64,000 bases of DNA, taken from an uncultured Gemmatimonadales bacterium (GTDB lineage: Bacteria; Gemmatimonadota; Gemmatimonadetes; Gemmatimonadales; GWC2-71-9). This document shows, piece by piece, positions 16,822-64,000 of this stretch (the first letter of the stretch is position 1; each line of letters opens with the position of its first letter). The stretch lies in the NCBI GenBank assembly GCA_963695555.1, contig CAVOGR010000001.1, forward strand, positions 448,001 through 512,000, given 5' to 3'. The position numbers and the translations under genes were made by a program. Below the pieces are notes generated by a model, which made no database searches, had not been told where the DNA came from, and saw nothing but the letters and a program-made list of their open reading frames with translations.

Positions 16822-16835
16822 AGCGGGAGAATATC

Positions 16836-18137: not shown

Positions 18138-18155
18138 AAGCGGGGACAGCAGCCT

Positions 18156-39811: not shown

Positions 39812-40212
39812 ACATCTCTCCACCGCGGGATATCCTGGGGACGACATACGGCCGCCGAAGATGCACGATTGCTGCGGCACGATCTCCGCCTGGCCTCGGG
39901 GTGCGGCGCGACTTCGCGTTTTACTCTTGCCGCTTCGTCGGGTGCTTGGTGAACGGAAGCGCCTACGACGTGGAGACCTACTGTAGGCTGCTCGCCGCGA
40001 CCAGAACACGATGTAGGGTACCACCTCTTGCCACCATGACTAGTGCCAGTGCCATTGCGGCCACCGGCTCGCTCGGCTTGAGGTCGATGGGCGCTGGGCG
40101 CGCAACCCGGACGGGTGTGGGGTGGAGGGGCTGCTCAGCTGACTCCGACTGGCGTTACCTTTCCAGCGACATATTGATCAAGCCACCCGTCCATGTAGCC
40201 CCACTCGAGCCC

Positions 40213-43200
40213 ATGCACATGACGACGGTCCGAAGCCAGCCAGTCCCGCTCACACTCGACGACGCCCGGGCGATTGCCCGCGAACACTACGGTGTGAACG
40301 CTCCGCCACGACAGCTTCCAAGCGAACGCGACCAGAATTTTCTGTTTTGCGCGCCGGCGGGTCCGTGGTACGTGCTCAAGATTGCCGGGCCGAATGACAG
40401 CACAGAGATCCTGACCGCACAGAACACGGTGCTGGAGCATGTGGCCCGGGTTGCTCCGGAGATCGGGGCACCACAACCGCTTCGTACCACGGCCGGCGAC
40501 GGCATTGCCGCCGTCCGTGCCGCGGACGGGACCACCCGCCTCGCCCGTCTCCTGTCGTACGTGCCTGGTCTGCTCTTGGCGGATGTGGCACCGCACACGC
40601 CCGAACTTCTGTCGAGCCTGGGCGCGTTCTTCGGGCGGCTCGACCACGGGCTCTCGGCGCTTGCCCTTCCGGCATTACAGCGAGAATTGCATTGGGATCT
40701 CCAACGCGCCGGCTCGGTCATCGATCGTCACGCAGCGCTCATCAGGGATCCCGCGAGGCTCGCCCTGGTGCGGCACTTCCGTCAGCGTTTCGAGACGATC
40801 GTCGCCCCAGTGCTCCCCACGCTCCGCCAAAGTCTCATCCATAACGACGGGAACGACTACAACATCCTGGTCACTCGCTCCGCTTCCGGAGAGACCGTGA
40901 CCGGGATCATCGATTTCGGCGACATGGTCGAGACCGCAACGGTCATCGAGCCCGCGGTCGCTGCGGCATACGCCATCTTGGGGAAGGCCGATCCGTTGGC
41001 CGCTGCGGCCCATGTGGTGGCGGGGTATCACGGGAGCCATCCCCTCACGGAGCAAGAGATCGGGTTGCTGTATGACCTGATTGCGCTTCGGCTCGCGGTG
41101 AGTGTCTGCCTCGCAGCGCATCAACGACGGCAGGATCCCGACAACGCCTATCTCTCCATTTCGGAGGCACCGGCCTGGGACGCCCTGGGACGCTGGCGGG
41201 ACATTTGCCCTCGACTGGCAACGTATGCCTTCCGCCAGGCGACCGGAATGCACCCGTGCCCGGCGACCCTGGAGATAGTCCAGTGGCTCGACGCCAACCC
41301 CGATCGGATCGGACCAGTCATCGAGCCCGGCCTGGACTCCGGCAGTGTGCTCGTCTTCGATCTTTCCCCCGGCAGCTACCAGTTTATCGACGTGGCCGAC
41401 CCGTTCGACCAGGCCAGCCTCGCTCGGGCGGTCACCGAGCAGATCCGGACAGCAGGGGCCCGGGTCGGAGTGGGGCGCTACAACGAGGCGCGGCGGCTCT
41501 ACCGGGCACCGCAGTTCTGCCCGCCCAATAGCGAGGTGGACGAGTGGCGCACCGTGCATCTGGGCGTGGACCTCTTCCTCGAACCCGGCTCGCCGGTACT
41601 TGCTCCGCTCGACGGCACCGTGCATAGCGTGGCTAACAATCGGGTGCCGCTCGATTACGGCCCGACCGTCATTCTTCGGCACCAACCGGATGATGCTCCG
41701 GAGTTCTTTACGCTGTTCGGGCATCTGAGCGAAGAGTCCCTCACCGCGCTCGGGCCGGGGACGCGCATCGCCAAAGGCGAGCGGGTTGGCGTGATCGGAG
41801 ACATTACGGTCAACGGAGGGTGGCCGCCACACCTCCACTTCCAGATCATCACCGACCTGCTCGACCAATCCGGCAACTTCCCGGGTGTCGCCGCGGCCAA
41901 GGACCAGGCACTTTGGCTTGCACTTTGTCCCGATCCCAATCACGTGCTCCGCATCGACGGGCTCCCCGCGCCGGATACCGGACGGAGCCCCGCCGAGATT
42001 GTAGACGTGCGGCGCCGGCACCTGGGTCCGACGCTCAGCGTGAGTTACCGGCGGCCGCTCAAGATCGTGTCGGGGCGCATGCAGTGCCTGTACGATCATC
42101 TGGGCCGGGAGTTCCTCGATGCCGTGAACAACGTGGCCCATGTCGGCCATTGTCATCCGGCGGTCGTCGAGGCCGCGCAGCGGCAAACGGCACTGCTCAA
42201 TACCAACACCCGCTATCTCCACGACACGATCATCGACTACACGGAGCGCCTTCTCTCGACGTTGCCCGAGCCGCTCCGGGTCTGCTACCTCGTCTGTTCC
42301 GGCAGCGAGGCGAACGAGCTGGCGATCCGGCTGGCGCGGGCTCACACCCAAGCGACGGACGTCGTCGTGATCGACGGCGGCTACCACGGCAACACCACGG
42401 GCCTCATCGAGCTGAGTCCCTACAAGTTCAACGGCCTGGGCGGGGCAGGCGCACCGTCGCACGTCCACGTCGTACCGACGCCCGACTGTTACCGGGGACT
42501 GTACACCGACCCTCGAGAAGCTGGCCGGCGGTATGCCGCTCATGTCGCCGAGACCACGCTCCAGACCAGAAAGCGAGGCCGGCATGTGGCGGCCTTCCTC
42601 GCGGAGTCCTTTCCGAGCTGCGCAGGACAGATCGTGCTGGCACCAGGGTTCCTGGCCGAGAGTTACCGGTTGATCCGGGAGGCCGGGGGCGTGTGCATTG
42701 CCGACGAGGTGCAGGTGGGCTTCGGACGGGTGGGCTCGGACTTCTGGGGCTTCCAGACGCACGAAGTGGTCCCCGACATCGTCACGATGGGAAAGCCGAT
42801 CGGGAACGGCCATCCACTCGGCGCGGTCGTGACCACGCCCGAGATTGCGGCGTCGTTCGACAACGGCATGGAGTATTTCAACACGTTTGGCGGCAACCCG
42901 GTCTCCTGTGCGGTGGGATTGGCGGTGCTGGACGTGATCGAGGGGGAGGGGTTGCAGCAGCACGCCCGGGACGTGGGCGACATGCTGAAGGGCGAACTCC
43001 GTCGATTGGCAGGCGCGCACGAGATCATCGGTGATGTCCGCGGAGCCGGGCTCTTTCTCGGCGTCGAGTTGGTGCGCGATCGCGCGACCCGCGAACCCGC
43101 CGGTCGGGAGGCGTCCTACATCGCCAACCGCATGCGCGATCGCGGCGTGTTGCTCAGCACGGACGGACCGCACGGCAATGTGCTCAAGATCAAGCCGCCG

Positions 43201-43299
43201 ATGGTTTTCGACGTCGCCGACGTTTCGCGCCTGGTCGATGCGTTGGCGCGGGTCCTCGCTGAGCCCAAGTTGAAAACGCTTGCCGCGGGAGATGGATAG
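40213..43299 (+). CDS. Fusion of APH/hydroxylysine-kinase-like phosphotransferase, M23-like domain and class III aminotransferase (phospho-lyase-like)
   Basis: [20 protein letters not shown] and IIDFGD; HLGVDL and [26 protein letters not shown] and TMGKPIGNG. Confidence 0.9.
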
Positions 43300-48400: not shown

Positions 48401-49632
48401 GCGAGTGCCACCTTGCGGCGCTTCGGGACCGGAGCCGTGAGGCTCTGCCGCTTTGTGCTGGCCACTCGGCTCGGCAGGCCGAAGATCTCGATGAACCCGC
48501 GGGCGGACTCATGGTTGAAGGCGTCACCGGCGGCGTAGGTTGCGAGTGCCGGATCGTACAGGGCGTTGGCCGAGCGCCGCGCAACGGGCGTCACGTGGCC
48601 GCGATGGAGTGTGACCTTCACCTCCCCGGTGACCGGCTGCACGGCCTGGTCCACGAAGGCGGCAATCGATTCCCGAAGGGGCGAATACCAGAGGCCATCG
48701 TACGTGAGACGAGCCAATTCCTGCCCCAGGGCTGCTTTGGCGCGCCGTGTCTCGCGGTCGAGGGTCAACTGCTCGAGCGCCTGCCGCGCGGCGTGCAGGG
48801 TCACGGCGGCCGGGGCCTCGTACACTTCGCGGGACTTGATACCGACCACCCGGTCTTCGATCATATCGATGCGTCCGACTCCATGTGCGGCCGCGCGCTC
48901 GTTCAACTCGTTGAGGAGCTGCACGCCCCCGAGTGCCCGTCCATCGAGCGCTGATGGTACGCCGTGCTCGAACGCGATGGTCACCGGTTCCGGCGTGGCC
49001 GGGGCACGCTCGGGATCGACCGTCATCTGCCAGCAGTCGTGTGGCGGTTCCGCCCATGGGTCTTCCAGCTTGCCCGCCTCGATCGAGACGCCCCAGAGGT
49101 TCTCATCGATGGAGTAGGGCGACTTCTTGGTCGCCGTGACGGGAATGTGGTGCGCCTTGGCCCAGGCGATTTCTTCCTCCCGGCTCTTGAGCTCCCAGCT
49201 CCGGACGGGTGCCAGGCACTGCAGATCGGGCGCCAGCGCCGCGACCCCGACTTCGAAGCGCACCTGGTCGTTCCCCTTGCCGGTGCACCCGTGAACGATG
49301 GTATCGGCCCCGACCTCGCGGGCCACTTCCACTAGTCGCTTGACAATGAGGGGACGGCCGATGGCCGAGCCCAGCGGGTAGACTTCCTGGTAGAGCGCTC
49401 CCGCCTTGAGAACCGGCCACAGATAGTCGCGAACGAATTCCTCGCGAAGGTCTTCCACGTAGGCGGCACTGGCGCCGCAGAGGAGGGCCTTCTCCCGAAC
49501 CCCGACCAACTCGCGTTTCTGCCCGAGGTCGGCGCTAACCGTGACCACCTCGGCGTCGTAATGGACCTGGAGCCACTTGAGAATGACGGAGGTGTCGAGC
49601 CCACCGGAGTAGGCGAGAACGAACTTGGGCAT
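48397..49632 (-). CDS. argG: Argininosuccinate synthase
   Basis: LAYSGGLDTS, HGCTGKGNDQVRFE, YSIDENLWG and GIKSREVYE motifs. Confidence 0.97.
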   Translation of the reverse strand: MPKFVLAYSGGLDTSVILKWLQVHYDAEVVTVSADLGQKRELVGVREKALLCGASAAYVEDLREEFVRDYLWPVLKAGALYQEVYPLGSAIGRPLIVKRLVEVAREVGADTIVHGCTGKGNDQVRFEVGVAALAPDLQCLAPVRSWELKSREEEIAWAKAHHIPVTATKKSPYSIDENLWGVSIEAGKLEDPWAEPPHDCWQMTVDPERAPATPEPVTIAFEHGVPSALDGRALGGVQLLNELNERAAAHGVGRIDMIEDRVVGIKSREVYEAPAAVTLHAARQALEQLTLDRETRRAKAALGQELARLTYDGLWYSPLRESIAAFVDQAVQPVTGEVKVTLHRGHVTPVARRSANALYDPALATYAAGDAFNHESARGFIEIFGLPSRVASTKRQSLTAPVPKRRKVALA

Positions 49633-49675
49633 GAGCGTGTCTCGGTGTGGTCTAGAGTTGGTGGAGTGGAGTGGA

Positions 49676-50155
49676 CTAGTCGACACTGAGCAGCGATGCC
49701 AGACGCTGCCTCAGCTTTGCAGTTTGCTTGACGCGCCGGGGGTGGACGATCACCGTATCGTCTCCGGCCAGCGTGGCGAGAATCTCGGGCATGGCGAGGG
49801 AATCGAGGTACACGGCCACGCCCTGGGCCCGGCCCGACAACGTGTGCACGGCGACCGCCACTTCGTTCGCGTCGATACCGGTGACTTCACTCGCGGCGAG
49901 GCGGCGGAGTTGTTCCGGTGGCGTGGCCGTGTGCGGTCCACCATTCCCGCCGGCCGGCAAGTAGCGGTAGCTGTCGCCGGTGGAGACCCGGGTGACGCGA
50001 AGTTCCTTGAGATCCCGCGACAGCGTCGATTGGGTGACTCGAATGCCCCCCGCCGCGAGCTTCGCGGCGAGATCATCCTGGCTCGCAATCGGCGTCGCCC
50101 CCAGGATTTGGAGGATGGTACGGTGGCGGCGAGTCTTGTCGGTCGTATCGGTCAT
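49676..50155 (-). CDS. argR: Arginine repressor
   Basis: TQSTLSRDLKEL and ATLAGDDT motifs. Confidence 0.95.
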   Translation of the reverse strand: MTDTTDKTRRHRTILQILGATPIASQDDLAAKLAAGGIRVTQSTLSRDLKELRVTRVSTGDSYRYLPAGGNGGPHTATPPEQLRRLAASEVTGIDANEVAVAVHTLSGRAQGVAVYLDSLAMPEILATLAGDDTVIVHPRRVKQTAKLRQRLASLLSVD

Positions 50156-50203
50156 GGCCCGCGGGTCGATGGTCGTGTCCTGGCGGGCCCGAGCGCCCGA
50201 TAG

Positions 50204-50237
50204 TGCATTTATATACAGTTATCGGAATATCTATGCA
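50204..50237. promoter_or_regulatory. Tandem ARG boxes
   Basis: TGCATTTATATACA and GGAATATCTATGCA cores with a 20-bp period, ~50 nt upstream of argR. Confidence 0.85.
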
Positions 50238-50345
50238 AGGGGCCGGCTGCCACCGCTCCGGGGGTGATTCTCCGCTCCGGCGGCGGTAGCTTGAAACGAA
50301 GCCTTGATCGGTGGTGTCCCAGAGTCCCGCAACGAGGAGATTCTG

Positions 50346-50564
50346 ATGCCTGAGCAGATCACGAGAAAAGCGCGGGTCGGACGGGCTGCTGCAACCCTTG
50401 GCATCCTCCTGCTCATCGCGAAGCTCGTCATCTCAGTGTTCGGCCTACCGAGCTCCGGCTCCCGCACACTCATCTTTGCCGGGGTCGTGTTCCTCTTCGT
50501 CGGGCTTGCCCTGATCCAGCACGACAAGCGGTCAGGTCCGAACGACGGGATTCCGCACTCATGA
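50346..50564 (+). CDS. Small two-TM membrane protein
   Basis: Strong RBS GAGGAG; two hydrophobic helices. Confidence 0.6.
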   Translation: MPEQITRKARVGRAAATLGILLLIAKLVISVFGLPSSGSRTLIFAGVVFLFVGLALIQHDKRSGPNDGIPHS

Positions 50565-50760
50565 CCTCCGGGCAGCGACCAGGCAACATGAGGTAAGGCA
50601 GCAGTCGGGGCTTCCCTGCCATGGTCTAGCCCTCGCCTCCTTCTCGCTTCATTCTTGCTTCATCCTATCGCGCGAACTTTGGGGACTATTGCTCTCTCAA
50701 TTGGCTCGTCCCCGTGAGTTTGCGGCCTCGCGCCTCCCTACGTTTGTTCGGAGCATCGCC

Positions 50761-52440
50761 ATGAGCACTTCTGCTGGAGCCGTTCAGGGACTCGATCGGG
50801 AGACCCTCGACATGACGCTCGAGGCCATCCGGGATTTCGCCGATCAGAACCTGCCGCAGGAGCTGCTCCTGGAACTGGATGCCACCCACGAGTTTCCGGA
50901 GGCGCTGATCCGGGCCATGTGCGGCGAGTTGGGCATCCAACTCCTGTTTATTCCCGATGCCTACGGCGGGATGGGAGGCGGCTCGTTCGATGTCTACCGC
51001 GTCTGTGAGCTCATGGGATCCATCGACCTCGGCGTCGCCACCGGGGTGCTGGCCACGTTCCTCGGCAGCGACCCGATTCTCTGGGGCGGCACCGACGAGC
51101 AGAAGGCCCGCTGGATGACCCGTATCGCCGAAGAAGGCCTGCTCATGGCCTACGGCGCGACCGAGCCCGAGGCCGGAAGCGATCTGGGCGCGCTGCGCAC
51201 CACTGCGGCGCGCATCGAGGACGCCGGGACAGTGACCGGCTACCGGTTGAACGGCGCCAAGATGTGGATCAGCAACGGCGGCTTCGCGGATCTGTATAGC
51301 GTGTTGGCCCTGGCGCCCGGCGGACCGACCTGGTTCGTCATGGAAAAGGGCGCTGAGGGGTTCACCTACGGCAAGCCCGAAGACAAGCATGGCATCCGCT
51401 CGAGCAATACGGCGGCGCTCTTCTTCGACAACGTCGGTATTCCGGCCGAGAACCTCATCGGCACGGAGGAGGGCCAGGGGTTGGTGCAGGCGCAGTTGGT
51501 GTTCGGATATACCAGGCTGATGGTCGCCGCGTTCGGGCTTGGGGCAGGATGGGCCGCACTCGACCGTGCGTTGGAATACTCCACTACCCGAATCCAGGCG
51601 GGCGGCCCGCTCTCCGGGAAACAGGGCTACACCCACAAGCTGATCGTGCCGCATGCATGCCGGCTCGAGGCCGGCCGGGCTTTCATCGAAGAGACCGCCA
51701 TGCGGCTGGACGGTGGCGAAGGCAGTCTCAATACCGAGGGTGCCATCGCCAAGTACATCGCAACGGAGGCTGGAAACGATGCCGCGGAGGCGGCGATCCA
51801 GGCCCTCGGTGGGTACGGGTACACGCGCGAGTACATCGTGGAGAAGATCAAGCGGGACGTCCGCATCACCACCATCTACGAAGGCACGTCCGAGATCATG
51901 GAGATGACCATCGCGCGCGATCGGTGGCAAACCCACTTGAAGACGCGCGGGCAGCACTATCATGACGACGCGACCCGGCTGCGGGAGCTGGCCGCGTGCA
52001 GCCCGGGCGTGGGCGCTGATGTGGCTGCGCTCGCGGCGGATGGCCTTGGTCACCTCCTGGAGCGCGCCCGGGTCGGACGGCTCACCCGGAATCAACACGT
52101 GCTGTTCCGGCTGGGTGCGCTGATTGCTCGGGTGGAAGCGGCGGGAGCGCTGGCGCGGCGAGCGGCGGCCGCGGCGAACGGAGCGCTGCCGCCGAAGGCG
52201 GACCAGCGACTGGACCCGGAGTCGCTGGCATTGGCCAGTCGTATTTATGCGCGCGAAGCGGCTTCCGCGGTTGTCTCCGAAGGACTACGCTGGGTGCTTG
52301 GTGCGGACGGGGTGCCGTCGGCGGAGCTCGCGGCATTCGAGGCTTTGCTGGGTACTGGAGCGATCCATTCAGCACAGGCCGGGTTGGTGGACGACATGGA
52401 CCGTCTGGCGCAACGGCTGTATCGGCGGTATGAGGCTTGA
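50761..52440 (+). CDS. Acyl-CoA dehydrogenase family protein with C-terminal extension
   Basis: ATEPEAGSD, LNGAKMWISNG, KHGIRSSNT, QALGGYGY and IYEGTSEI motifs. Confidence 0.92.
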   Translation: MSTSAGAVQGLDRETLDMTLEAIRDFADQNLPQELLLELDATHEFPEALIRAMCGELGIQLLFIPDAYGGMGGGSFDVYRVCELMGSIDLGVATGVLATFLGSDPILWGGTDEQKARWMTRIAEEGLLMAYGATEPEAGSDLGALRTTAARIEDAGTVTGYRLNGAKMWISNGGFADLYSVLALAPGGPTWFVMEKGAEGFTYGKPEDKHGIRSSNTAALFFDNVGIPAENLIGTEEGQGLVQAQLVFGYTRLMVAAFGLGAGWAALDRALEYSTTRIQAGGPLSGKQGYTHKLIVPHACRLEAGRAFIEETAMRLDGGEGSLNTEGAIAKYIATEAGNDAAEAAIQALGGYGYTREYIVEKIKRDVRITTIYEGTSEIMEMTIARDRWQTHLKTRGQHYHDDATRLRELAACSPGVGADVAALAADGLGHLLERARVGRLTRNQHVLFRLGALIARVEAAGALARRAAAAANGALPPKADQRLDPESLALASRIYAREAASAVVSEGLRWVLGADGVPSAELAAFEALLGTGAIHSAQAGLVDDMDRLAQRLYRRYEA

Positions 52441-52496
52441 GTCGACAGCGTGGTTGTCACGCGCGAATCCTCGATGTTGGAAGGCTATGAGAAAGT

Positions 52497-55400
52497 ATGA
52501 AATCGACGGCTGACAGGGCAATCGCTATTGTCGGGGTGGGAGCGGTCCTGCCGGACGCACCGAACGCCGCGTCGTTCTGGACCAACCTTTGTGAAGGTCG
52601 CTACAGCGTGTCCGAGGTCCCAATCGAGCGCTGGGATGTCGCGAGATACTTCGATCCCGATCCCAAGGCCGTGGACAAGACCTATTCGAAGATCGGCGGA
52701 TGGGTACGGGAGTTCGAGTGGAATCCCCTCGGGTGGCGCTTGCCTATTCCACCGAAGGTGAGTGAGGTGATGGACCTCGCCCAAAAGTGGGCGATCGTCT
52801 CGGCCCGGGAGGCCTTGGCGGATTACGGCTATCCCGACCGCGCCCTCGATAAAGAGCGCACCGCAGTGATCATGGGCAACGCACTCGGCGGGGATTATCA
52901 CCTGATGACGGCCATGCGGGTGCTCTTTCCGGAAATCGCCGCGGAACTGACCGGGTCCAAGAGTTTCCAAGCATTGCCCGGGGCAGTGCAACGTGCCGTC
53001 GTCGACGAACTGCGTTCCGGCGTTCAGGCCCGGATCCCAGACATCACGGAAGACACCATGCCCGGCGAGCTGGCGAATATTGTCGCCGGCCGCTTGGCCG
53101 CCCTGTTCGATTTCAAGGGCCCGAACTACATCACCGACGCCGCCTGCGCCTCAGCGATGGCCGCCGTCAACGCGGCGGTCGAAGGGCTGAACGGGCACGA
53201 CTTTGACGCCGTGCTCACCGGCGGCATCGATGCCAACATGAGCCCGTCGACCTTCGTCAAGTTCTGCAAGATCGGAGCACTCTCGGCCACCGGGACCCGC
53301 CCCTATGCGGAGGGAGCCGACGGCTTCGTCATGGGCGAGGGTGCTGCGTGCTTCCTGCTCAAGCGACTCGACGACGCTGAACGTGCGGGCGACCCGATCT
53401 ATGCCGTGATCCGCGGGCTCGGCGGCTCGAGCGACGGACGGGGCAAGGGCATCACAGCCCCCAATCCCGTCGGCCAGCGGTTGGCCGTGGTCCGGGGCTG
53501 GGAGCGACGCGGGCCTGCTTCCCGAGGCAGGCGACTTGGTCGAAGGGCACGGGACCTCGACCAAGGTCGGAGACGTGGTCGAGGTGGAGAGCCTGACGGA
53601 AGTGCTTTCAACGTCACGGTTTGCCAGCGCAATCCGTCGCCTTGGGATCCGTGAAATCCAACATCGGTCACTTGAAGGCGGCTGCGGGGGCCGCGGGCCT
53701 CCTCAAGGCAACGCTCGCACTGCACCACAAGCTCATGCCGCCCAACATCAACTTCCACGCGCCGAATCCCGCAATCGACTTCGTCCGCTCACCGTTCCGC
53801 GTCACCACCGAGCTTCAACCGTGGGAAAAGCCTGGGGTCAACGGAGAGTCAGTACGCCGCGCCGGCGTGAGCGCCTTCGGATTCGGGGGGACCAACTTCC
53901 ATGTCGTGCTGGAGGAGTACGTGCCGGGCCGGCTCGCGCGAGAGCGGACATTGGTGGCTTCGGCCGGACTCACCGCCGGGTCGTCGGAGACAGGTGCGGC
54001 ACTCAAGTCTCCGCTTCGCGGAGCGATGGTCGTGGGTGGTTCCTCCGAAGCCGAGATTGCCAGCCGGCTCCGGCTCATCAAAGCCGAGGCGGATCGAGGA
54101 ATCGCACCGCCGCCCGAGGCGCCGCTCGCACGGGACCTCGCGGCACCCGTCCGACTCGCCATCGACTACGGCGATGCGGCTGACTTGAGCGATCTGGCGG
54201 GCAAGGCGCTGCAGGCGTTCGAGGAGGGACAGGAGGGCAGGTGGCGGGCGCTTCGCAACAAGGGGGTGTACCTCGGACGCGGTACGCCCGGGAAGGTTGC
54301 CTTCCTCTTTACCGGCCAGGGCTCGCAGTACGTGAACATGCTGGCGGAGCTCCGGGCCACGGAACCCATCGTTGCCGAGACGTTTGTCGAGGCCGATCGG
54401 ACGATGGAACCGTTGATTGGACGTCCGCTCACAGATTGCATCTTCGTCGACCCAACCAATGAGGACCTCGCGGCCCAGGCGGCCGAAGGTCTCCGTCAAA
54501 CGGCCATCACTCAGCCGGCCGTGCTCACCGTCGATACGGCGCTCGCTCGTCTGCTCGACGCGTACGGCATCGTGCCCGACATGGTGATGGGCCACAGCCT
54601 CGGCGAGTACGGCGCATTGGTGGCGGCTCAGGCACTCCCGTTTGCCGGTGCCCTGACCGCCGTTGCGGCGCGCGGCAAGGCGATGACCGAACTGTCCCTT
54701 GGAGACAACGGTCTCATGGCTGCCGTGTTCGGACCGGTTGACCGCGTCGAAGCGCTGTTGCGGGACACGCCGGGTTACGTCGTGGTCGCCAACCTGAATA
54801 GCAGGAAGGAATGCGTGATCGGCGGGGCCACCAAGGCGGTCGAGGCCGCGATGACCGCACTTCAGGCGGAAGGACTGCGTGTCGCACAGCTTCCGGTGAG
54901 TCACGCGTTTCATACCAAGATCGTAGAGCCGGCAGCGGCACCGCTCACCGACGTGTTGACGGGGCTCGGCGTTCGGCCTGCCGCAATCCCAACCATCTCG
55001 AATGTGACCGGTGAATTCTATCCCATGGGTCAGGGCGTAGAGCCGCAGATGATCGAACTCCTGGGCCGCCAGATCGGGTCGCCGGTGCAATTCGTGAAGG
55101 GCCTCAACACGCTCTATGAGTCAGGCGCCCGAGTGTTCGTGGAGTTGGGTCCGAAGCGCGTCCTGTACGGCCTGGCCGACGATGTGCTGGGTGAGCGCGC
55201 CGGTTTCGCCGCGTTCTACACCAATCATCCTCGAACCGGAGACGTTGCCTCGCTCAACCGCGCGCTGTGCGGACTCTATGCGGAAGGCCTCGGACGTGGC
55301 GCAGAAGAGCCTGTGCCCGAGATTCATGCCGTGTCACCGCGTCCGGCTTCAGCTCACGCGCGTGCAGGCATACCCGCGGCGCCCGCCGTTCCTCAGCTGC

Positions 55401-58400
55401 CGCGTGTCGGAGATGCCGAGTCTCCAGATCGGCTCCTGACCTTGGGCCGCATGTTTGCCGACTTTCTCGAGCAGAGTTTCGAGGTCTACTCCGGCGGTGC
55501 CGCGCGACAGGTCCGAGTTGGGATCACCGGGGCATCACTCGGTCTCCCTGGCACCGAGCGGGTCTTCGAAGAAACCAACCTCGAGCGCATTCTCGGCGGG
55601 GAGGTGTTGATCGGGAACATTCCCGACAGATTCCGCCGTACCATGGCCGACATGCACGTCACACGCTTGGTGAAGGGAGCGGGTGGCGAGGCCAACTTCG
55701 TGTCGGTCAACGACCCCAGCGGCGTCATCAAGCTCGCCGGCATCGGCGGGAAGCTCGACCTGGCGGGCGAGTACGGCTTTCCCGAAGACCGGGTGCAGGC
55801 GCTCGATCGGATTACCCGCCTGGCCATCGCGGCGGGGATCGAAGCCCTGCGCGATGCCGGCATTCCTCTCGTCCGGCGATACAAGACCGCCACTACCGGA
55901 TCGATGCTCCCAGTTGGCTGGAGTCTCCCCGAGGAAATGCGGGATGACACCGCAGTCATCTTCGGGTCGGCGTTCCCTGGAATCGATGCCCTTGCCACGG
56001 CCATGGATGCCTATCATGAAGATCGCTCACGTCGTGGACGGCGTGACGAGCTCCAGGCGTTGCGGACGGGCCTCCTGGCACGTGACGATGCTGCCGCCAT
56101 CGCCGAACTGGATCGACGCATCGAAGCGTTGACCAGTGAGATCGAGGCCAATCCTTTCGAGTTCGACCGCCGGTTCTTGTTCCAGGTGCTCACGATGGGA
56201 CACTCGCAGTTCGCCGAATACATCGGCGCCCGCGGCCCCAACGTCCAAACCAACTCGGCCTGCGCCACCAGCACGCAAGCGGTGGCACTGGCCCAGGACT
56301 GGATCCAGGCGGGACGCTGCCGCCGCGCCATCGTGCTGACCGCGGACGACATCACCACCGACGCGCTGCTGCCTTGGATGGCGAGCGGCTTCCTGGCCTC
56401 GGGCGCTGCTGCTACCGACGAGCGGGTGGAAGATGCGGCCCTGCCGTTCGACCGCCGCCGGCACGGCATGATCATAGGCATGGGAGCCGCCGCCATGGTG
56501 GTGGAAGACCTGGCGGCTGCGGCGGAGCGCGGGATCCAGCCGGTTTGCGAGGTATTGGGGACCATCACCGCCAACAGCGCCTTCCACGGGAGCCGCCTCG
56601 ACGTCGATCACATCGTCGGCGTGATGGAAGAGCTGGTCGCCGGTGTCGAACGCCGCTGGGGCCTGTCCCGGCATCAGATCGCAGCGCAGACCGTGTTCGT
56701 CTCCCACGAGACCTACACGCCGGCCCGCGGCGGGAGTGCGAGCGCAGAAGTGGAAGCGCTCAGGCACGTGTTCGGCGGTGTGGCCGATTCGATCGTGATC
56801 GCCAACACCAAGGGATTCACCGGCCACGCGATGGGAGTGGGAATCGAAGACACCCTGGCGGTCAGGATGCTGGAGACCGGCATCGTCCCGCCCGTTGCCA
56901 ACTTCCGCGAGATCGACCCGGCACTTGGGGCACTCAATCTCAGCCGTGGCGGCAGCTACCCCGTCATGTACGCGCTCAGGCTGGGTGCCGGATTTGGATC
57001 GCAGATCAGCATGATGCTCCTGAAATGGACGCCGCCGCCGGATGGGGCGAGGCGCTCCCCAGGTGACATGGGCTACCAGCACCGCATCGCGGCCCCCCCA
57101 GCATGGCAAGAGTGGCTGACCCGGGTGACCGGATACGATGCGCCAAACTTGGAAGTCGTCCGGCGGACCTTGCGGGTCAAAGATCAGGGACCACCGAAGC
57201 GAGAGCCAGCGCGCAAGCCGCTCAGGCGTGCGCCGGACCTGCCGCTCGTCGGTGCGCCGGTTCGTGAGGCCGGCCCACCACCGGTCCGTCCTCTGTCCCA
57301 TGTTCCCGCTCCCGAATTGGTGACCCGGTCGGCGGCTGTGGTCCACCCGCCTGCAGCCGCTCCAGCCGTGGCCGTCCCGCCTGTGCGCGCGGAAGCGTCC
57401 AAGGTGCCCGGCGCGGATGGAGTGGCCGAACGAATTCTCGCGATCGTCGCCGAACAAACCGGCTATCCAAAGGACATGTTGGCGCTCGATCTCGATCTGG
57501 AAGCCGATCTCGGCATTGATACCGTGAAACAGGCCGAGATGTTCGCCGCCATCCGGGATGCGTATAACATCGAACGAGATGAGAACCTGGCCTTACGAGA
57601 CTATCCGACCCTCGCGCGGGCAATCGAGTTCGTGTATGAGAAACGTCCCGACCTGAAGCAGGTCGGGGCAGCTGCTCCCATTGCCACGACCGTACCATCT
57701 CCGTCGGCCGCCCCCGCGCCGCCACTCGTCGCAATCCCGTCGGATGGCATCCGGGAGCGGGTCCTCGCGATCGTGGCCGAGCAGACCGGGTATCCGCCCG
57801 ACATGCTCGACCTCGACCTCGACCTCGAGGCCGATCTGGGCATCGACACGGTGAAGCAGGCGGAGATGTTTGCCGCCATTCGGGAGGTCTACGGCATCGA
57901 GCGCGACGAAACGCTCGCGTTGCGCGACTATCCAACCCTCGCGCGGGCCATCGAGTTCGTGTACGAGAAACGTCCCGACCTGAAGCAGAGTGGCGTTGCC
58001 ACTGCCGCTTCTCCAGCAGCTCCAATTGTTCAGCCAACTTCCACGGCTCGACCCGCTGCCGCCGAAGCTGACAGCGTGCGGGAGCGGGTCCTTGCCATTG
58101 TGGCCGAGCAGACCGGGTATCCGCCGGACATGCTCGACTTGGACCTCGACCTCGAGGCCGATCTCGGCATCGACACGGTAAAGCAGGCGGAAATGTTCGC
58201 CGCCATCCGGGAGGTCTACAGCATCGAGCGTGACGAGACGCTCGCGCTGCGCGACTATCCAACCCTGGCGCACGCGATCGAGTTCGTGTTCGAGAAGCGT
58301 CCCGACCTCCGGGGAACCAGGCCCGATGCAAAGGCGGAGCTGCAGGCCGCGCCGCCGGTGGAGCAAGACGTCGCATTACCTGACTCCGACCGTGTGGTGC

Positions 58401-61201
58401 GCGACAGCGTGCTATCGATCGTGGCCCAACAGACGGGGTATCCGCCCGATATGCTCGACCTCGATCTCGATCTCGAGGCCGATCTCGGTATCGACACGGT
58501 GAAGCAGGCGGAAATGTTTGCCGCCATCCGGGAGGTGTACAGCATCGAGCGGGACGAAACGCTGGCGCTCCGCGATTATCCAACCCTAGCGCACGCGATC
58601 GAGTTCGTGTTCGAGAAGCGGCCGGACCTGCGAAGCGGGACCCCGCCCGATGCAAGACCGGTCGTTTCTTCGGACTCAGCGATCGTACCGCCAAGCGCAA
58701 CCACGGTGCATACTGGCCCGGTATACGCAGGCTCGGAAGCGGCGGCGCAGGCGGTGCCGCGCCGCGTGCCGGTTGCACTGCTGCGGCCGCCGGCCTCGCG
58801 ATTCACTCGAACCGGCGTTCAGCTCGGAGCAGGCGACCGAGTACTCGTGGCCTTGGACGTGGGCGGCGTGGGGAAGGCTCTGGTCCGGCAGCTGACCAAG
58901 CGCGGGGTGACGGCTCTGGTCCTGGATGATTGTACCGATCCGGAGGATCTGCAGCGCCGAATCGGCGAGTGGACCGCCGACGGTCCTATCAATGGGGTGT
59001 ATTGGCTGCCGGCGCTCGACCCGGTGAGTGATGCCGACCTGCTCGATCCCGAGGCGAGGTTGGTTGCCATCAACTGCCGGATCAAGTCGCTGTTCCGACT
59101 CATGCGGGCGCTATATGATCAGCCACTGTTCCTCATCACAGCCACGCGGCTCGGCGGGAAGCACGGCTACGATGAAGCCGGCGCCACCGACACGATTGGT
59201 GGTGCGGTTGTCGGCTTTACCAAGGCGTTTGCTAGAGAAAGGCCCGAGTGCCTGGTGAAGGCCGTTGATTTTGCTCCGTCGCGGAAGACGACAGCCGTGG
59301 CCGACCAGCTGATTGACGAGACTCTGTACGACAAGGGTATCGTCGAAATCGGCTACGGGGATGGCCATCGGTGGACGGTGGGTCTCGAGTCCCGGGCCAT
59401 TGAGTTTGGTGACCAACTGAGCGGTGCCGATCGAGTATTCGTTGTCACAGGCGCGGCTGGAAGCATCGTGTCCGCCATCGTGGCCGACTTAGCGGCGGCC
59501 TCGAAGGGAATCTTCTGGCTACTCGACCTTACTCCGGAACCAAATCCCGACGATGCCGACCTCCAGCGGCTCGAGTCGGATCGTGACGGGCTCAAGCGGG
59601 ATCTGTTCGACCGCCTGAAGCGATCGGCAGAGCGCGTGACCCCCGCCATGGTGGAGCAGGAGATCACGCGGATCGAACGATCCCGGGCGGCGCTCGCCTC
59701 GATTCGTGCGGTCGAAGCGCTTGGAGGACACGCTCGGTATCGCGCGGTGGACCTGAGGGATGTCGATCGGGTGGCACAGGTGATGTCCGAAGTCGTCCAG
59801 GAGAGTGGACGGGTCGACGTGCTGCTGCATGCGGCGGGGCTCGAGGTCAGCCGCCCCCTTCCCAAGAAGGAGCCTCGTGAGTTCGACCTCGTCTTCGACG
59901 TCAAGATCGACGGGTGGTTCAACCTGCTTCGAGGCTTGGGCGATGCCCCGCTGGGTGCCGCGGTGGTATTCAGCTCGATCGCCGGCCGCTTCGGCAACGC
60001 CGGGCAGACCGACTATAGCGCGGCCAACGACATGCTCTGCAAGGCCATGTCGGCACTACGCCGCACCAGACCGGATACCCGCGGAATTGCCATTGATTGG
60101 ACGGCATGGGCGGACATCGGGATGGCCACGCGCGGGTCCATACCCGCCATCATGAAGCAGGCGGGGATCGACATGCTGGCGCCCGAGGCTGGAATCCCCG
60201 TGGTCCGTCGGGAATTGACCGCCGGCACCCGGGGAGAGGTGGTGATCGCGGACGGCCTCGGCATCATGCTGGACGAGACCCAGGCCAGAGACGTAATGCT
60301 GGGCGGAGCCGAGTCGTCGGCGGCTGGGCTCATGGTCGGAACGGTCGAATCGTTTGGTCCCTACGGCGGGCTCGTCGTTCAGACCCGGCTCGACCCCGAG
60401 GCCCAGCCGTTTCTCCGGGACCACCAGATCGACGGCACGGCCGTGCTGCCGGGTGTGATGGGGCTCGAAGCGATGTCCGAGGCCGCGCTCGTCGGATTTC
60501 CCGACCGGTTCGTCGGCGCCCTCGAGCGCGTCGAGTTTCTGCAGCCGTTCAAGTTCTATCGCGGCGAGGCGCGCACCGTCACGGTCAAGGTTCAGTACGC
60601 CCTCGACGGTAAGGATATCCTGGCCAACTGCCGGCTCGAGGGGTCGCGGCAGCTGCACGGCCGGACGGAGCCCGAGGTCACGACCCACTTCACCGGCACC
60701 GTCCGGCTTACAGCGAAGCCGCCCGACGAGGCACGCTTACGCAGCGTGCCGCCGGTGTCGGACGCCGTGGTAGGAAGCGATGCGATCTACCATGTCTACT
60801 TCCACGGCCCCTCCTATCGCGTGGTGGGCAACGCCTGGCGGGCCAAGGACGTCCTGGCCGGTCAGCTCGCGCGCGGCCTGCCCGCCGGGCAGGAGCCGGC
60901 TGGCGGGTCTACCATTGTCGCGCCGCGGCTCGTGGAGCTCGCATTTCAGACTGCTGGTCTTGCCGAGATCGCGCAGTCGGAGCGCATGGGCCTGCCGAGC
61001 CGGATCGAACGCCTCGAGTTCCGGCGTGCGGCCAACGGCGAACCGGACGGTTCAACCGCGCTGGTCGAGGAAGCCGGCGATGGAGCATTCGACGTCGACG
61101 TGACCGACAAGACCGGTCGTGTCTTGCTGTCGTTGCGCGGATACCGGACCAACCCGCTGGGCCGGGTTGAGAACGCCCCGTTCCAGGCGCTCAAGGCCTG
61201 A
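52497..61201 (+). CDS. PfaA-like iterative type I PKS/FAS: KS-AT-KS-ACPx4-KR-DH (~2900 aa after removing two +1 insertions near 53508 and 53605)
   Basis: KS1 DAACAS / EGHGTST / NIGHLK; AT GHSLG and HAFH; KS2 NSACAT / SHETYT / TGHAMG; 4x [42 protein letters not shown]. Confidence 0.92.
57424..58633 (+). repeat. Four near-identical ~235-bp ACP-domain repeats
   Basis: Repeat periods of 327, 327 and 321 bp, with variable Ala/Pro-rich linkers. Confidence 0.92.
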
Positions 61202-61920
61202 TGGAAGCGACGATTCGTACAACGGCCGGGCCCGGCACGGTGGTCACGCTGGTGACTGGACGAGCCGGGAAGGTTCCCGCCGGCGACCGGTGGCTTTCCC
61301 CTCTCGAGCGGTCGGTCGAGGCGAGACTCCGCTGGCCCAAGCGCCGGTCGGACTGGCGGCTTGGCCGGTGGGTCGCGAAACGGGCGGTCATCGCCTGCTT
61401 GCAGGACGAGCAAATCGAGCCGCCCGACATCGAAATTCTCGCGCAGGAAACCGGCGCACCCGGTGCCCGCGTTCTCTCGGGCCCGGTCACGGTTCCGGTG
61501 AGCGTCTCCATAAGCCATAGCGATGGAGTTGGCCTGGCCGCCGCCGCCGTTGGCGACGTCGCGCTCGGATGTGATGTGGAGCGGATTGAACCACGCACCG
61601 AACGGTTTGTCGCGGATTACTTCACCGCTGCGGAGCGGGAGCGGGTCGCTCGGACCGTGGCGGTCGATCGTCCGACGGTCGTCACGCTCATCTGGAGTGC
61701 CAAGGAAGCCGCGCTCAAGGTGCTGGGGGAAGGCATGCGTCTCGATGCCAGGGCCGTCAGCGTCGAAGTACCCATTGGGCCGCACGCGGCCTGGGACCAG
61801 CGTTCCGCGTTCCGCGTCCGGCTGCCGGATGCTCGGTGGATTCCGGGGTGGTGTTGGGTCGGCGACGGGTTCGTCTGGACGATCCTGGGTGACCGCCCGG
61901 CGACCATCGCGCTCGCCTGA
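61201..61920 (+). CDS. Sfp-type 4'-phosphopantetheinyl transferase
   Basis: SISHS, LGCDVE and WSAKEAALK motifs; TGATG coupling to the synthase stop. Confidence 0.92.
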   Translation: MEATIRTTAGPGTVVTLVTGRAGKVPAGDRWLSPLERSVEARLRWPKRRSDWRLGRWVAKRAVIACLQDEQIEPPDIEILAQETGAPGARVLSGPVTVPVSVSISHSDGVGLAAAAVGDVALGCDVERIEPRTERFVADYFTAAERERVARTVAVDRPTVVTLIWSAKEAALKVLGEGMRLDARAVSVEVPIGPHAAWDQRSAFRVRLPDARWIPGWCWVGDGFVWTILGDRPATIALA

Positions 61921-62101
61921 TTCTCCAGAACACAACCAGTTCCCCACCAATTCGGCCACACGCCCGGCTTGCTTGGGACCGGGAAGGTTTCCTCCATTGC
62001 GACTCGTGGTCGGGGAAGGGCTCCCTGCCGGTCACGAGGGCGACCAACCGTGCACATCGCTAAGCTCTTGCCCGCCAACACACTCACAATTCTTGGCGGG
62101 G

Positions 62102-62117
62102 TGGTACGGAGAATGCT
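62102..62117 (+). promoter_or_regulatory. Putative sigma54 promoter
   Basis: TGGTACGGAGAATGCT, ~80 nt upstream of ATG 62196. Confidence 0.5.
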
Positions 62118-62195
62118 TCTACCTGTAGATGTGCCCGAGGCGTAGGTGGGCCTCGGCTGGTCGTTCAACATCTAGGACGAAGGAGCTGGACTATT

Positions 62196-62615
62196 ATGAG
62201 CAGGATGACTTCGGGTATTGCCGTTTCACTGTTGGCCCCACTGGCACTCATGGTCGGCAGCACCACCCTCGTGGCCCAGGAGGCCATGGCCGAGCATTGC
62301 AGCGCTTCCTTCTCTCAGGAGACGATCCCGGTTCAGGTCGAGCCGGTGATGTTGAAGGTCACCATGTCGCAAGGGATCGGGGACCTCACGGGTGGAATGG
62401 CGAGCGAGGAGAGCGGCATCGTGGTGAAGGAGGTCAAGACCGCGGACGAGGGCATGATCCTGTCGCTAGACACCAGCAAGGCCGTGGCCGGCGAGTGGAA
62501 GCTCGGCTTCACGGGCTCAGAAGGCGCGTGCGATGGCAAGGTCAAGGTCAAAGCCGCCGCGGAACAGACCAAGGATGTTGAGAAGGCAAAGGAAGTCGAA
62601 AAAGCAAAGGAGTAG
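62196..62615 (+). CDS. Small secreted protein
   Basis: AAGGAG RBS, signal peptide, two Cys and a charged tail (VEKAKE x2). Confidence 0.75.
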   Translation: MSRMTSGIAVSLLAPLALMVGSTTLVAQEAMAEHCSASFSQETIPVQVEPVMLKVTMSQGIGDLTGGMASEESGIVVKEVKTADEGMILSLDTSKAVAGEWKLGFTGSEGACDGKVKVKAAAEQTKDVEKAKEVEKAKE

Positions 62616-62678
62616 CACCCGAGTCGGGCGAGGGTTGAGCATAGAGTACGTCCAGGCGTAGGTGAGACTCGTGGTGCG

Positions 62679-62713
62679 GCGGCTGGGTCCTTGTGGCCCA
62701 GCCGCTTTTTTTT
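62679..62713 (+). terminator. Rho-independent terminator
   Basis: GCGGCTGGGTC-cttgt-GGCCCAGCCGC followed by T8. Confidence 0.88.
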
Positions 62714-62717
62714 GCGG

Positions 62718-63275
62718 CTAGTTGGTGGGGCGGCCCAGGTCGATGTTTTTGAGCCGCCGCAGTTCGTCCTCCAGGCGGCGGAGGACCGCGTCCTTGGCCT
62801 CGACCTCCGCCTGCAGACGCTTCACTTCGGCTTGGAGGTCGGTGAGGCGGCGTCGGTTGGCGCCGATGGTGTCCTGAAGCGCGGTGTGCGTGGCCTCGAG
62901 TCCCTGAACCACGGCTCGCAGCGAATCGAGTTGCTGGCGTTCGACCTTCGCCTGGTCGCTGAGGTCGACCATGTCTCCCAGCAGACCGGCCAGGATCCTG
63001 GCCGCGGGTAGGTGCGGGCTCTGGGGAAACCGCGTCACCATTTGGGCGAGCAGCGCCCGTGCCCGTTCGGGGTTGGATACGGCAGTCCCTGGCGCGGCAT
63101 AGCTCAAGGCCAGCCGGTACAACGCGCGATCACTTCCTGCCACGGACGGGTCTTCTTCGTACGCGCGTGCCGCCAGCTCGTATTGCCCCGCTTCGAAATG
63201 CCGGTCGAGTGCACTCGCGGTACAACCAGCCGCCGCCAGCGTCACAGCCGCCGTGAGGAGAAGTGCGTGCCTCAT
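62718..63275 (-). CDS. Lipoprotein with TPR-like and coiled-coil regions (QseG/YfhG-like)
   Basis: Lipobox AAGC; ends ELRRLKNIDL; overlaps the kinase stop. Confidence 0.65.
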   Translation of the reverse strand: MRHALLLTAAVTLAAAGCTASALDRHFEAGQYELAARAYEEDPSVAGSDRALYRLALSYAAPGTAVSNPERARALLAQMVTRFPQSPHLPAARILAGLLGDMVDLSDQAKVERQQLDSLRAVVQGLEATHTALQDTIGANRRRLTDLQAEVKRLQAEVEAKDAVLRRLEDELRRLKNIDLGRPTN

Positions 63276-64000
63276 GCGACTTCCGCGCGCGGCACCCGCT
63301 TGGCTGGGCTGGCCGGGTGCGAAAACAAATCCGTCGCGGCGTCGGAGGTGAAGGCCTCGGGCAGCAGAAACTCGAAGACGCTCCCGGACGGGGCATGGTC
63401 GCGAACCCAGATAGCCCCGCCGTGGGCCTCGATGATGCGCCGGCTGAGTGCCAGGCCCAGGCCGACGCCGCTGCCCGCTGCCTTCCGGCCATGCAGACCC
63501 TGATAGAACTGGGTAAAGATCGCGTTCCTCTCCCTGTCCGGCACTCCCGGGCCGTGATCGATCACCGCAACCAGGACGTACCCCGATCCACCGGTCGCGC
63601 TGCGAATCTGGTCCCGCACTACTGGGCCGATCGTGGCCGGCATCTCCGCATGATAGGCGACCGACACCCGGATCGGCTGGTCCTCGGGGGAGAACTTGAT
63701 GGCGTTCTCGATCAGGTTTTGCACGACCTGAATGACGTGCGGCCCGTCGCACGCGACCACAACGGGCGTGCTGGGGAGGTCGGCCGTGATGCGTCGGCCC
63801 GATCGCCCCGCGCCGTTGAACTCGGCGAGAATGGTCGTGATGAGGTCGCCCAGGTCTTGCCACACGAATTCGTAATGGAGGCTGCCAGATTCGATTTGAG
63901 ACTGTTTCAGCAGTTTCGAGATCATGTCGGAGAGACGGCTCGCACTGGAGAGATTGAGTTCCACCAGATGCCGTTGCTTCTGGTTCAGCGCGCCGGGGAG
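63272..64000 (-). CDS. Sensor histidine kinase, C-terminal part (truncated by window edge)
   Basis: N box QNLIENAIKFSP, DHGPG, GVGLGLAL and HGGAIWV motifs. Confidence 0.92.
   Translation of the reverse strand, partial: LPGALNQKQRHLVELNLSSASRLSDMISKLLKQSQIESGSLHYEFVWQDLGDLITTILAEFNGAGRSGRRITADLPSTPVVVACDGPHVIQVVQNLIENAIKFSPEDQPIRVSVAYHAEMPATIGPVVRDQIRSATGGSGYVLVAVIDHGPGVPDRERNAIFTQFYQGLHGRKAAGSGVGLGLALSRRIIEAHGGAIWVRDHAPSGSVFEFLLPEAFTSDAATDLFSHPASPAKRVPRAEVA

Follow-up and report, generated by a model that had tools for sequence, protein, structure and literature searches.

Here we describe a three-gene locus in a 64,000-nucleotide stretch of DNA from an uncultured Gemmatimonadales bacterium (contig CAVOGR010000001.1, positions 448,001 to 512,000; hereafter the window). 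Its plus strand encodes, in this order, an acyl-CoA dehydrogenase (ACAD), a lipid megasynthase and a 4'-phosphopantetheinyl transferase (PPTase). The synthase combines two ketosynthases (KS1 and KS2), an acyltransferase (AT), four acyl carrier protein (ACP) domains, a ketoreductase (KR) and a dehydratase (DH). Judged by its predicted architecture, the locus is a Type R secondary lipid synthase cluster, a kind catalogued in 2011, in its minimal form. The ACAD is supported as a constant partner of this synthase, and in one large clade of the family it fills the slot that a conventional enoyl reductase (ER) occupies in the sister clade. We therefore propose that the ACAD may carry out enoyl reduction in trans, with electrons from electron transfer flavoprotein (ETF), for an iterative synthase that is complete in all other respects, a reading that we hold, from sequence comparison, at about even confidence.

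The linkage of the two genes was evaluated in set 1, the 80 best related genome loci, many of which are truncated by contig ends. In 77 of them KS1 is immediately preceded by an ACAD of 59-95% identity, and the three others (L034, L041, L080) have no upstream DNA. Under a stricter rule, which required at least 1.7 kb of upstream DNA, the ACAD was present in 70 of 70 loci, and this recurrence of the gene order argues that the arrangement is not due to chance. The 80 loci come from Gemmatimonadota, Acidobacteriota, Actinomycetota, KSB1/Calditrichota and Bacteroidota. When 121 genomes of the window's own phylum were sampled, the synthase was found in two (G000 and G023) and a full-length ACAD of this specific type in the same two, all other ACAD matches having at most 42% identity and covering the core only. 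Eleven of 101 genomes sampled from the acidobacterial order of locus L004 hold both genes, with the ACAD on the strand of the synthase and about 4.7 kb upstream of it, and the other 90 hold neither. Co-occurrence of the ACAD with this architecture, which the first-pass annotation of the window had named as a check, is therefore found both in the adjacency counts and, without exception, in the two genome samples.

Fusion proteins connect the two genes further. Eleven longer proteins join an ACAD to KS/AT sequence; two of the four that were scanned (P0273 and P0274) are clean, full ACAD-KS1-AT fusions, and the other two have the look of truncated chimeras and are possible artefacts. An ACAD fused in frame to KS1-AT is also predicted in P0272, P0277 and P0278. 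Seen from the window itself, the ACAD might be taken for an unrelated β-oxidation gene that lies beside the synthase by chance, given that the pair has no Etf, ACC or acyltransferase gene nearby and that arginine genes lie just upstream. We regard this as hardly credible in view of the adjacency in all 70 informative loci across at least five phyla, the perfect co-occurrence in both genome samples, the existence of fusions and the conservation of the protein itself. An alignment of 32 ACAD sequences has a mean column identity of 77%, and the window protein shares 58-77% identity with its counterparts across phyla, the C-terminal domain included.

In more distant relatives the position in front of KS1 is occupied differently. 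A family search with the KS2 region gave 683 cluster representatives at E<=1e-30. Pfam analysis of 12 distant representatives showed that eight have the order NMO-KS-AT-KS-ACPn-KR-DH, in which NMO is a FabK/PfaD-type ER; four of these eight have a PPTase fused at the C-terminus, as does each of the four representatives with no NMO match. The NMO-clade polypeptide is almost self-contained, with two NMO-like domains, a length of about 3200-4000 aa and threonine carriers. Examples are P0157, P0182, P0189, P0237, P0247, P0249, P0252 and P0265, and the corresponding loci are L088-L095, L098, L114, L116, L132, L145 and L151.

An alignment of the NMO forms was used to collect set 2, 77 metagenome loci that were classed by their content within 2.6 kb upstream of KS1. 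Sixty-three of these were classifiable, ten of the others being without a KS1 start and four having less than 1.7 kb of upstream DNA. An ACAD was present in 26 of the 63, an NMO domain in 14, a FabI-type ER in one and neither an ACAD nor a recognisable ER in 22; no locus had both. The single FabI-type enoyl-ACP reductase gene (L125:9179-9958, identified with Pfam) lies directly upstream of a related synthase and is a third kind of ER in this slot. Eight of the 'neither' loci (L096, L099, L105, L107, L119, L123, L138 and L139) carry an N-terminal extension of 300-390 aa that matches no Pfam family and is 34-84% identical among them. Compared with NMO-type proteins, this extension shows only a weak likeness to their first ~300 residues (blastp E as low as 2.6e-13; motif RG.EAGG), and it might represent a reductase-like domain that is either degenerate or novel. 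Several other 'neither' loci have subunits of acetyl-CoA carboxylase (ACC) beside the synthase.

The same division is found in a KS2 tree of 81 rows, built from the window, 18 loci hand-picked from 70 of set 1 (the other 52 being omitted as redundant) and 62 loci of set 2. The tree splits, at an SH-aLRT of 98, into an ACAD side of 48 rows (44 with an ACAD, 4 with neither) and an ER side of 33 rows. The latter holds 13 NMO forms, the 8 forms with the N-terminal extension, 10 with neither, 1 with the FabI-type gene and 1 ACAD form on a long branch.

Most relatives on the ACAD side have more genes than the window does. On L004, Pfam gives the acidobacterial order as wax ester synthase/diacylglycerol acyltransferase (WS/DGAT), Fe-S/CCG protein, EtfB, EtfA, ACAD, synthase, ACC and PPTase, and the ACC of the acidobacterial loci is a single chain of ~1860 aa. 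Among the 80 loci of set 1, tblastn detected ACC in 58, EtfA in 57, EtfB in 55, the EtfD-like Fe-S protein in 51, the PPTase in 44 and WS/DGAT in 35. The Fe-S protein matches EtfD of M. smegmatis (PDB 9ojn; E 1.6e-86), described in PMC13083937 as the link between ETF and menaquinone. Minimal ACAD-synthase-PPTase loci occur in Bacteroidota (L061) and Calditrichia (L062), and a KSB1 locus (L018) is of the minimal type with other genes between synthase and PPTase. Set beside the larger conserved cluster, which runs EtfD-EtfB-EtfA-ACAD-synthase-ACC-PPTase and may include WS/DGAT, the three-gene form is minimal. The genes are as the first-pass annotation described them, but its reading of them as a three-gene system is overstated in view of this larger cluster. 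The ACC and WS/DGAT neighbours in Acidobacteriota point to neutral lipids there.

No etfB/etfA pair lies next to the ACAD in the window. The only EtfAB of the genome is encoded at C7:512260-513970, beside another ACAD and with a canonical ETF:quinone oxidoreductase (ETF-QO) domain nearby. In relatives, the Etf proteins have mixed PDB matches, to bifurcating and non-bifurcating types, with EtfB nearest to the Methylophilus ETF and EtfA nearest to an Etf of C. difficile.

The ACAD has the Pfam N, M and C domains at residues 38-410 of a 583-aa form with a TTG start, and ~170 residues beyond them. Its start is best placed at the downstream ATG that gives 559 aa (Table 1), since homologues mostly have 553-572 aa and the same-genus orthologue is an ATG-initiated open reading frame (ORF) of 559 aa. 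In an alignment to PDB sequences, the motif YEGTSE coincides with the catalytic region of 5lnx and 1buc, and the catalytic Glu is kept. An AlphaFold2 (AF2) model (pLDDT 85.5, pTM 0.90) was matched over its full length by Foldseek to VLCAD, ACAD9, 2z1q and 3owa (TMq 0.74-0.79), and MCAD/SCAD-type enzymes match the core only. These features place the protein in the VLCAD-like subgroup, since it has the three domains, the catalytic Glu and, beyond the core, a further helical domain at its C-terminus. By sequence, the closest matches in the PDB are ordinary CoA-dependent enzymes of the Bcd/MCAD type, and among the matches is prolyl-ACP dehydrogenase (4irn), an ACAD fold that acts on a carrier-bound substrate. 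The best NCBIfam match is the reductive acryloyl-CoA reductase AcrC, which falls far below the cut-off and is a weak hint.

These data allow us to propose a mechanism for the family. In it, a PfaA-like iterative type I synthase would be loaded with malonyl units by its AT, and its two ketosynthases would carry out the condensations. The growing chain would be held on the four tandem carriers, reduced by the KR and dehydrated by the DH, and, the synthase being without an ER of its own, the upstream VLCAD-like ACAD, taking electrons from reduced ETF, would supply enoyl reduction in trans on the enoyl-pantetheine intermediate. Most relatives would feed ETF through dedicated EtfBA and an EtfD-type ETF:menaquinone oxidoreductase, and the window genome would use its housekeeping EtfAB and ETF-QO as the electron source. 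The cluster would thereby make a long acyl chain, saturated for the most part, that goes into a non-essential 'secondary' lipid.

The first-pass annotation had suggested that the ACAD acts in trans on ACP-bound chains as the missing reductase or as a desaturase. The partnership it assumed is observed, and of its two options we favour the reductase; the reaction direction, the carrier (ACP or CoA) and the product are what we infer. We favour it because in relatives the genes for EtfB/EtfA and an EtfD homologue are clustered with that of the ACAD, and because the sister clade has a fused FabK/PfaD-type ER in front of KS1, never together with an ACAD. The enoyl/acyl-thioester couple lies at about -10 mV and menaquinone at about -74 mV, so that menaquinol-driven reduction through ETF would be thermodynamically feasible. 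Ascaris mitochondria contain an ACAD-fold 2-methyl-branched enoyl-CoA reductase that is driven by rhodoquinol through ETF, and Bcd-EtfAB, CarCDE and AcrC are further reductive ACADs.

Several points weigh against the ACAD as enoyl reductase. On the tree, its association with the synthase seems to go back to essentially a single origin, kept across phyla, so that the occurrences are not independent, and the ACAD-synthase fusions may in part be gene-calling artefacts arising from a lost stop. Of the 22 of 63 wider relatives that have no ACAD and no recognisable ER upstream, four fall within the ACAD clade. Action on synthase intermediates, and in the reductive direction, is itself deduced from gene context and protein similarity, and PMC13083937 describes ACAD, ETF and EtfD as an oxidative β-oxidation chain in mycobacteria. 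The Etf subunits of relatives appear to be not clearly of a bifurcating or reductive type. In the window genome, homologues of EtfD, the single-chain ACC and WS/DGAT were not found with the queries used, nor was a dedicated Etf for the ACAD. The genome also encodes a FabK-like NMO protein (C5:487593-488609), its only good NMO-family gene, beside genes of type II fatty acid synthesis (FAS II), and this protein could serve as an ER in trans. Finally, the reading frame of the synthase is broken in this assembly.

The same gene linkage fits equally well with an ACAD that works oxidatively. It would then be a dehydrogenase or desaturase of a primer or intermediate bound to a carrier or to CoA, passing electrons via ETF (and EtfD in relatives) to menaquinone. 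The chain built by the ER-less synthase would be unsaturated or a polyene, or else the synthase would elongate a fatty acyl primer supplied by FAS II. The ACAD/ETF/EtfD route is established in this direction (PMC13083937), and a flavoenzyme that dehydrogenates acyl-ACP during fatty acid synthesis, FabX, is described in PMC8626469; oxidising ACAD homologues that depend on a carrier also exist, prolyl-ACP dehydrogenase being an example. However, an oxidative role leaves unexplained why a FabK/PfaD-type ER takes the place of the ACAD in the sister clade and never accompanies it. In addition, the KS-KR-DH cycle already yields a 2-enoyl chain, which leaves a 2,3-dehydrogenase without a saturated substrate unless another ER acts first, and the ACC and WS/DGAT neighbours of relatives suggest bulk synthesis of acyl chains. 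We consider this alternative unlikely.

Rather less probable still is an ACAD that acts at the CoA level only, outside elongation, to provide an enoyl- or branched-CoA starter or to trim or modify released acyl-CoA, while a housekeeping ER such as the FabK-like protein carries out the reduction. This would suit the closeness of the ACAD sequence to CoA-dependent Bcd/MCAD-type enzymes and the presence of the FabK-like NMO protein and FAS II genes in the genome, and the 22 relatives with no adjacent ER or ACAD make housekeeping help in trans plausible. Against it stand the mutual exclusion of the ACAD and the fused ER at one position, the clean ACAD-KS1 fusions, and the two genome samples, in which no genome has the specific ACAD but lacks the synthase. 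An oxidative role, a role confined to CoA esters and a chance neighbourhood all explain the exclusivity of ER and ACAD less simply than does an ACAD that serves as the enoyl reductase.

The carrier domains of the synthase are unusual at the residue that is modified in other carriers. The canonical Ser of the DSL motif is absent from all four domains in the window, each of which reads DLGIDTV, and the Thr in its place aligns with the phosphopantetheinylated Ser of solved ACPs. All 365 motifs in the first 121 family proteins have Thr, the family form being DLG[IV]DTVKQ, and a strict motif counted across 270 family proteins gave Thr 673 times and Ser 7 times. Thr carriers are common to the NMO-type clade too. 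A few members (P0185, P0231, P0244 and P0248) have Ser in otherwise homologous domains, from which we argue that the Thr position is the functional one.

For comparison, the S36T variant of E. coli ACP is reported in PMC3340395 to be not modifiable. If so, the family either uses a PPTase of new specificity or handles its carriers differently. In our scheme the co-transcribed PPTase would be required because Thr replaces the universal Ser in the carriers. The cluster PPTase, which is sometimes fused to the synthase and is remote from solved PPTases (E 0.009 to Sfp), fits a candidate dedicated Thr-modifying enzyme. A literature search found no paper on Thr-linked phosphopantetheine, most subscription journals being outside its coverage. 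We advance only tentatively, and as clearly less probable than the reductase role by itself, the combination of both departures: enoyl reduction by a VLCAD-like ACAD that is driven backwards by ETF/menaquinol via EtfD or ETF-QO, with no NAD(P)H reductase, together with phosphopantetheinylation of Thr by a dedicated PPTase.

The first-pass annotation presented the synthase as one polypeptide, though its mention of a repaired gene implied a break. The domain order it gave was confirmed, but the gene is not a single ORF in this assembly. Its reading frame shifts twice, from frame 0 to +1 for ~33 codons and then to +2 for the remaining 2526 codons, as a result of two single-base insertions, a G and a C placed 99 nt apart in the catalytic region of KS1 (Table 1). 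Alignment to L001 and L002 showed that neither lies in a homopolymer. L001, a Gemmatimonadales contig 93-97% identical to the window, is without both bases, as is the same-genus genome G023, which is syntenic over 49001-64000 at 91-93% nucleotide identity and encodes the synthase as one intact ORF of 2782 aa. Both bases are also absent from contigs of runs X1, X2 and X4, public metagenomes from three studies; run X3 does not span the sites, so that this comparison rests on three of four runs, none of them shown to be the source sample. The rpoB, rpoC and dnaE genes are each in a single frame, indicating that the assembly is not generally indel-ridden.

These data leave two explanations for the insertions, an error of the assembly or a gene that was inactivated very recently. 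Programmed frameshifting was ruled out as their cause, as all relatives read straight through. If the insertions are real, the synthase is a fresh pseudogene and the system is dead in this strain, independently of how the ACAD works elsewhere. Two uncompensated 1-nt insertions outside homopolymers in a catalytic region, in an assembly whose housekeeping frames are intact, would agree with this, as would the rare and patchy occurrence of the cluster in the phylum (2/121 genomes), expected for dispensable, horizontally moving genes. On the other hand, the remaining 2526 codons are fully open, the ACAD and PPTase genes are intact, every comparator (L001, L002, G023 and the X1, X2 and X4 contigs) is without both bases, and a consensus error is possible given that the runs compared are not shown to be the source sample. 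We think inactivation quite possible, but lean against it. Separately, L058 has no long ORF at 15268-20891, in its single-chain ACC region, despite a tblastn match of 73% identity, which hints at frameshift errors in the L058 assembly and calls for caution over breaks in such long-read metagenome-assembled genomes.

The earlier annotation had also implied a new compact architecture, which is not borne out, as the arrangement was catalogued in 2011 as Type R with its product unknown. Shulse & Allen (PLoS One 6:e20146, PMC3098273) describe Type R as one pfaA homologue of the form KS-MAT-CLF-ACP(3-6)-KR followed by a PPTase, with hosts that include Koribacter, Solibacter, Elusimicrobium and Roseiflexus, and with an ACC gene between synthase and PPTase in Koribacter. 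The window has a single pfaA homologue with KS1, AT, KS2, four ACP domains and KR, and a PPTase downstream. As in Type R, pfaB, pfaC and pfaD are absent and the distribution across phyla is patchy, and its close relatives among Acidobacteriota/Terriglobia metagenome-assembled genomes show the synthase-ACC-PPTase order of Koribacter.

The window departs from the published description in its three-gene form with a broken synthase frame and in two domains. The Type R paper lists no DH, whereas the window synthase has a PKS-type DH by Pfam. The paper also calls the second KS a chain-length factor (CLF), but KS2 of the window keeps Cys/His/His, as do the full-length homologues examined, and the label is not apt. 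The word 'dehydrogenase' occurs 0 times in the main text of PMC3098273, which does not mention an ACAD, Etf/EtfD or Thr carriers; our comparison rests on that main text, and the supplement (Figure S2 and tables) may show neighbouring genes. The literature search found no later characterisation of Type R and, beyond Shulse & Allen, nothing relevant on an ACAD partner of a Pfa-like synthase; nor did it find in print the ACAD/ETF partnership, the displacement of the ER or the Thr carriers. PMC8692599 was considered as a precedent for the ACAD partner and rejected, the relevant part of that paper holding only an unrelated CaiA-type cluster. The architecture is widespread. The AT-to-ACP region matches more than 3800 proteins, and among the best 120 the full-length forms have 2600-3000 aa and the same Pfam set, with Gemmatimonadota, Acidobacteriota, KSB1 and Krumholzibacteriia as hosts.

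A characterised system close to the locus is the polyunsaturated fatty acid (PUFA) synthase PfaABCD(E). It has the same PfaA-like KS-AT...tandem ACP-KR-DH order, needs an ER in trans and has a dedicated PPTase. The window synthase differs in holding its second KS within the same polypeptide and in having an ACAD-fold flavoprotein where an ER of the FabK/PfaD fold would be expected. Against the PfaA model TIGR02813 (cut-off 1010.1 bits) two synthase pieces score 220.5 and 692.3 bits, the split gene having no single score. PfaD was not found in the window genome (best TIGR02814 score 19.9 bits versus a cut-off of 449.25). As to PfaB and PfaC, tblastn with KS and polyketide synthase (PKS) pieces found only FabF/FabB/FabD-like genes there, a FabA-type DH not being searched for separately, and no further PKS-type KS was found. 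The absence of PfaB, PfaC and PfaD partners stated in the first-pass annotation is thus upheld by the PfaD model and tblastn, in a genome 87.1% complete.

The partner protein invites other comparisons. Bcd-EtfAB (PDB 5ol2), CarCDE (6fah) and AcrC have the ACAD fold, work reductively with ETF electrons and are among the best sequence matches of the window ACAD. Their substrates are CoA esters, and their setting is fermentation or anaerobic respiration, whereas the window ACAD is encoded beside a type I synthase and has the VLCAD-like extra C-terminal domain. Furthermore, the ETF of relatives is coupled to an EtfD-type quinone oxidoreductase in place of NADH/ferredoxin bifurcation. Relatives encode EtfD, EtfB, EtfA and ACAD side by side, which recalls the mycobacterial FadE-EtfBA-EtfD chain. 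The latter oxidises acyl-CoA and reduces menaquinone (PMC13083937), but in relatives the chain stands beside a biosynthetic megasynthase, ACC and PPTase, and in the window genome the EtfD homologue was not found. Enediyne synthases (PKSE), for their part, have the architecture KS-AT-ACP-KR-DH-PPTase, with a single ACP, no second KS and a fused PPTase. The window has four ACP domains, a second KS and a separate PPTase gene, although some distant relatives of its synthase also fuse the PPTase.

The anatomy of the locus is given in Table 1. Analysis with Pfam, NCBIfam and motifs confirmed the domain set of the earlier annotation, in which Pfam matched neither an ER nor a thioesterase (TE) domain, and inspection of the AT confirmed its malonyl-type HAFH motif. 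The KS1 triad consists of Cys in DAACAS, His in EGHGTST and His in NIGHLK, and KS2 has a complete triad in NSACATS, SHETYTP and TGHAMG. The ACAD upstream and the coupled PPTase downstream likewise stand: the ATG preferred here for the ACAD agrees with the earlier coordinate, and the PPTase ATG overlaps the synthase stop (TGATG). The PPTase has an ACPS match of 64.2 bits, a weak 4PPT_N match of 20.1 bits and the motif WSAKEAxxK.

The 5' flank is a minus-strand arginine block of argR (49676-50155) followed by argG, argH and argD. On the 3' side, a plus-strand ORF of 139 aa (62196-62615) has a signal-peptide-like N-terminus, no Pfam family and 84% identity to a same-genus copy. It is followed by a strong terminator (62678-62706; 12-bp stem and T-run), which may be the end of a transcription unit that begins at the ACAD. 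Elsewhere in the window, a plus-strand ORF of 1190 aa (39727-43299) joins an APH-type phosphotransferase, an M23 peptidase and a class-III aminotransferase in an unusual fusion.

Table 1. Positions of the features of the ACAD-synthase-PPTase locus in the window
Feature	Position	Strand	Basis or remarks
VLCAD-like ACAD (predicted)	50761..52440	+	559 aa; Pfam N/M/C core, catalytic YEGTSE Glu, conserved ~170-aa C-terminal helical domain
Whole synthase, KS-AT-KS-ACP4-KR-DH	52497..61201	+	Pfam, NCBIfam, motifs; frame broken
Synthase piece 1 (frame 0): N-terminal part of KS1, active-site Cys in DAACAS	52497..53505	+	
Extra G, frame shift	53506	+	Absent from all comparators; alignment to L001, L002, G023 and run contigs X1/X2/X4
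Synthase piece 2 (frame +1), ~33 codons: KS1 catalytic His motif EGHGTST	53507..53604	+	Three-frame translation
Extra C, second frame shift	53605	+	Absent from all comparators; same comparators as 53506
Synthase piece 3 (frame +2), open to stop: KS1 end, AT, KS2, ACP x4, KR, DH	53606..61201	+	
Malonyl-type AT (GHSLGE, HAFH)	54302..55165	+	Pfam and motifs
KS2, second, FabF-like ketosynthase, Cys/His/His	55511..57028	+	NCBIfam fabF match, motifs; 'CLF' in the 2011 catalogue
Four tandem carrier domains	57398-57649, 57725-57976, 58052-58303, 58373-58624	+	Pfam PP-binding; each DLGIDTVKQ
KR	59447..60115	+	Pfam and motif
PKS-type DH, double hot-dog	60362..61171	+	Pfam PKS_DH_N and PS-DH, motif
Sfp-type PPTase, 239 aa	61201..61920	+	Pfam ACPS

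Acidobacteriota and Actinomycetota commonly have Type R synthases, which are also present in Gemmatimonadota, KSB1, Calditrichota and Bacteroidota. The comparative pattern defines a full gene set, EtfD-EtfBA-ACAD-synthase-ACC-PPTase with or without WS/DGAT, and turns an 'ER-less synthase' into a testable proposal in which the ACAD/ETF module is the enoyl reductase. If this is true, lipid synthesis in these bacteria would be tied to the quinone pool instead of NAD(P)H. A PPTase of new specificity, or another way of handling the carriers, would each be relevant to the engineering of PKS and fatty acid synthases. The ACAD/ETF partnership, the displacement of the ER and the Thr carriers make the family a good experimental target, and, should the combined proposal hold, a large, soil-abundant family of type I megasynthases would depart from textbook lipid synthesis twice.

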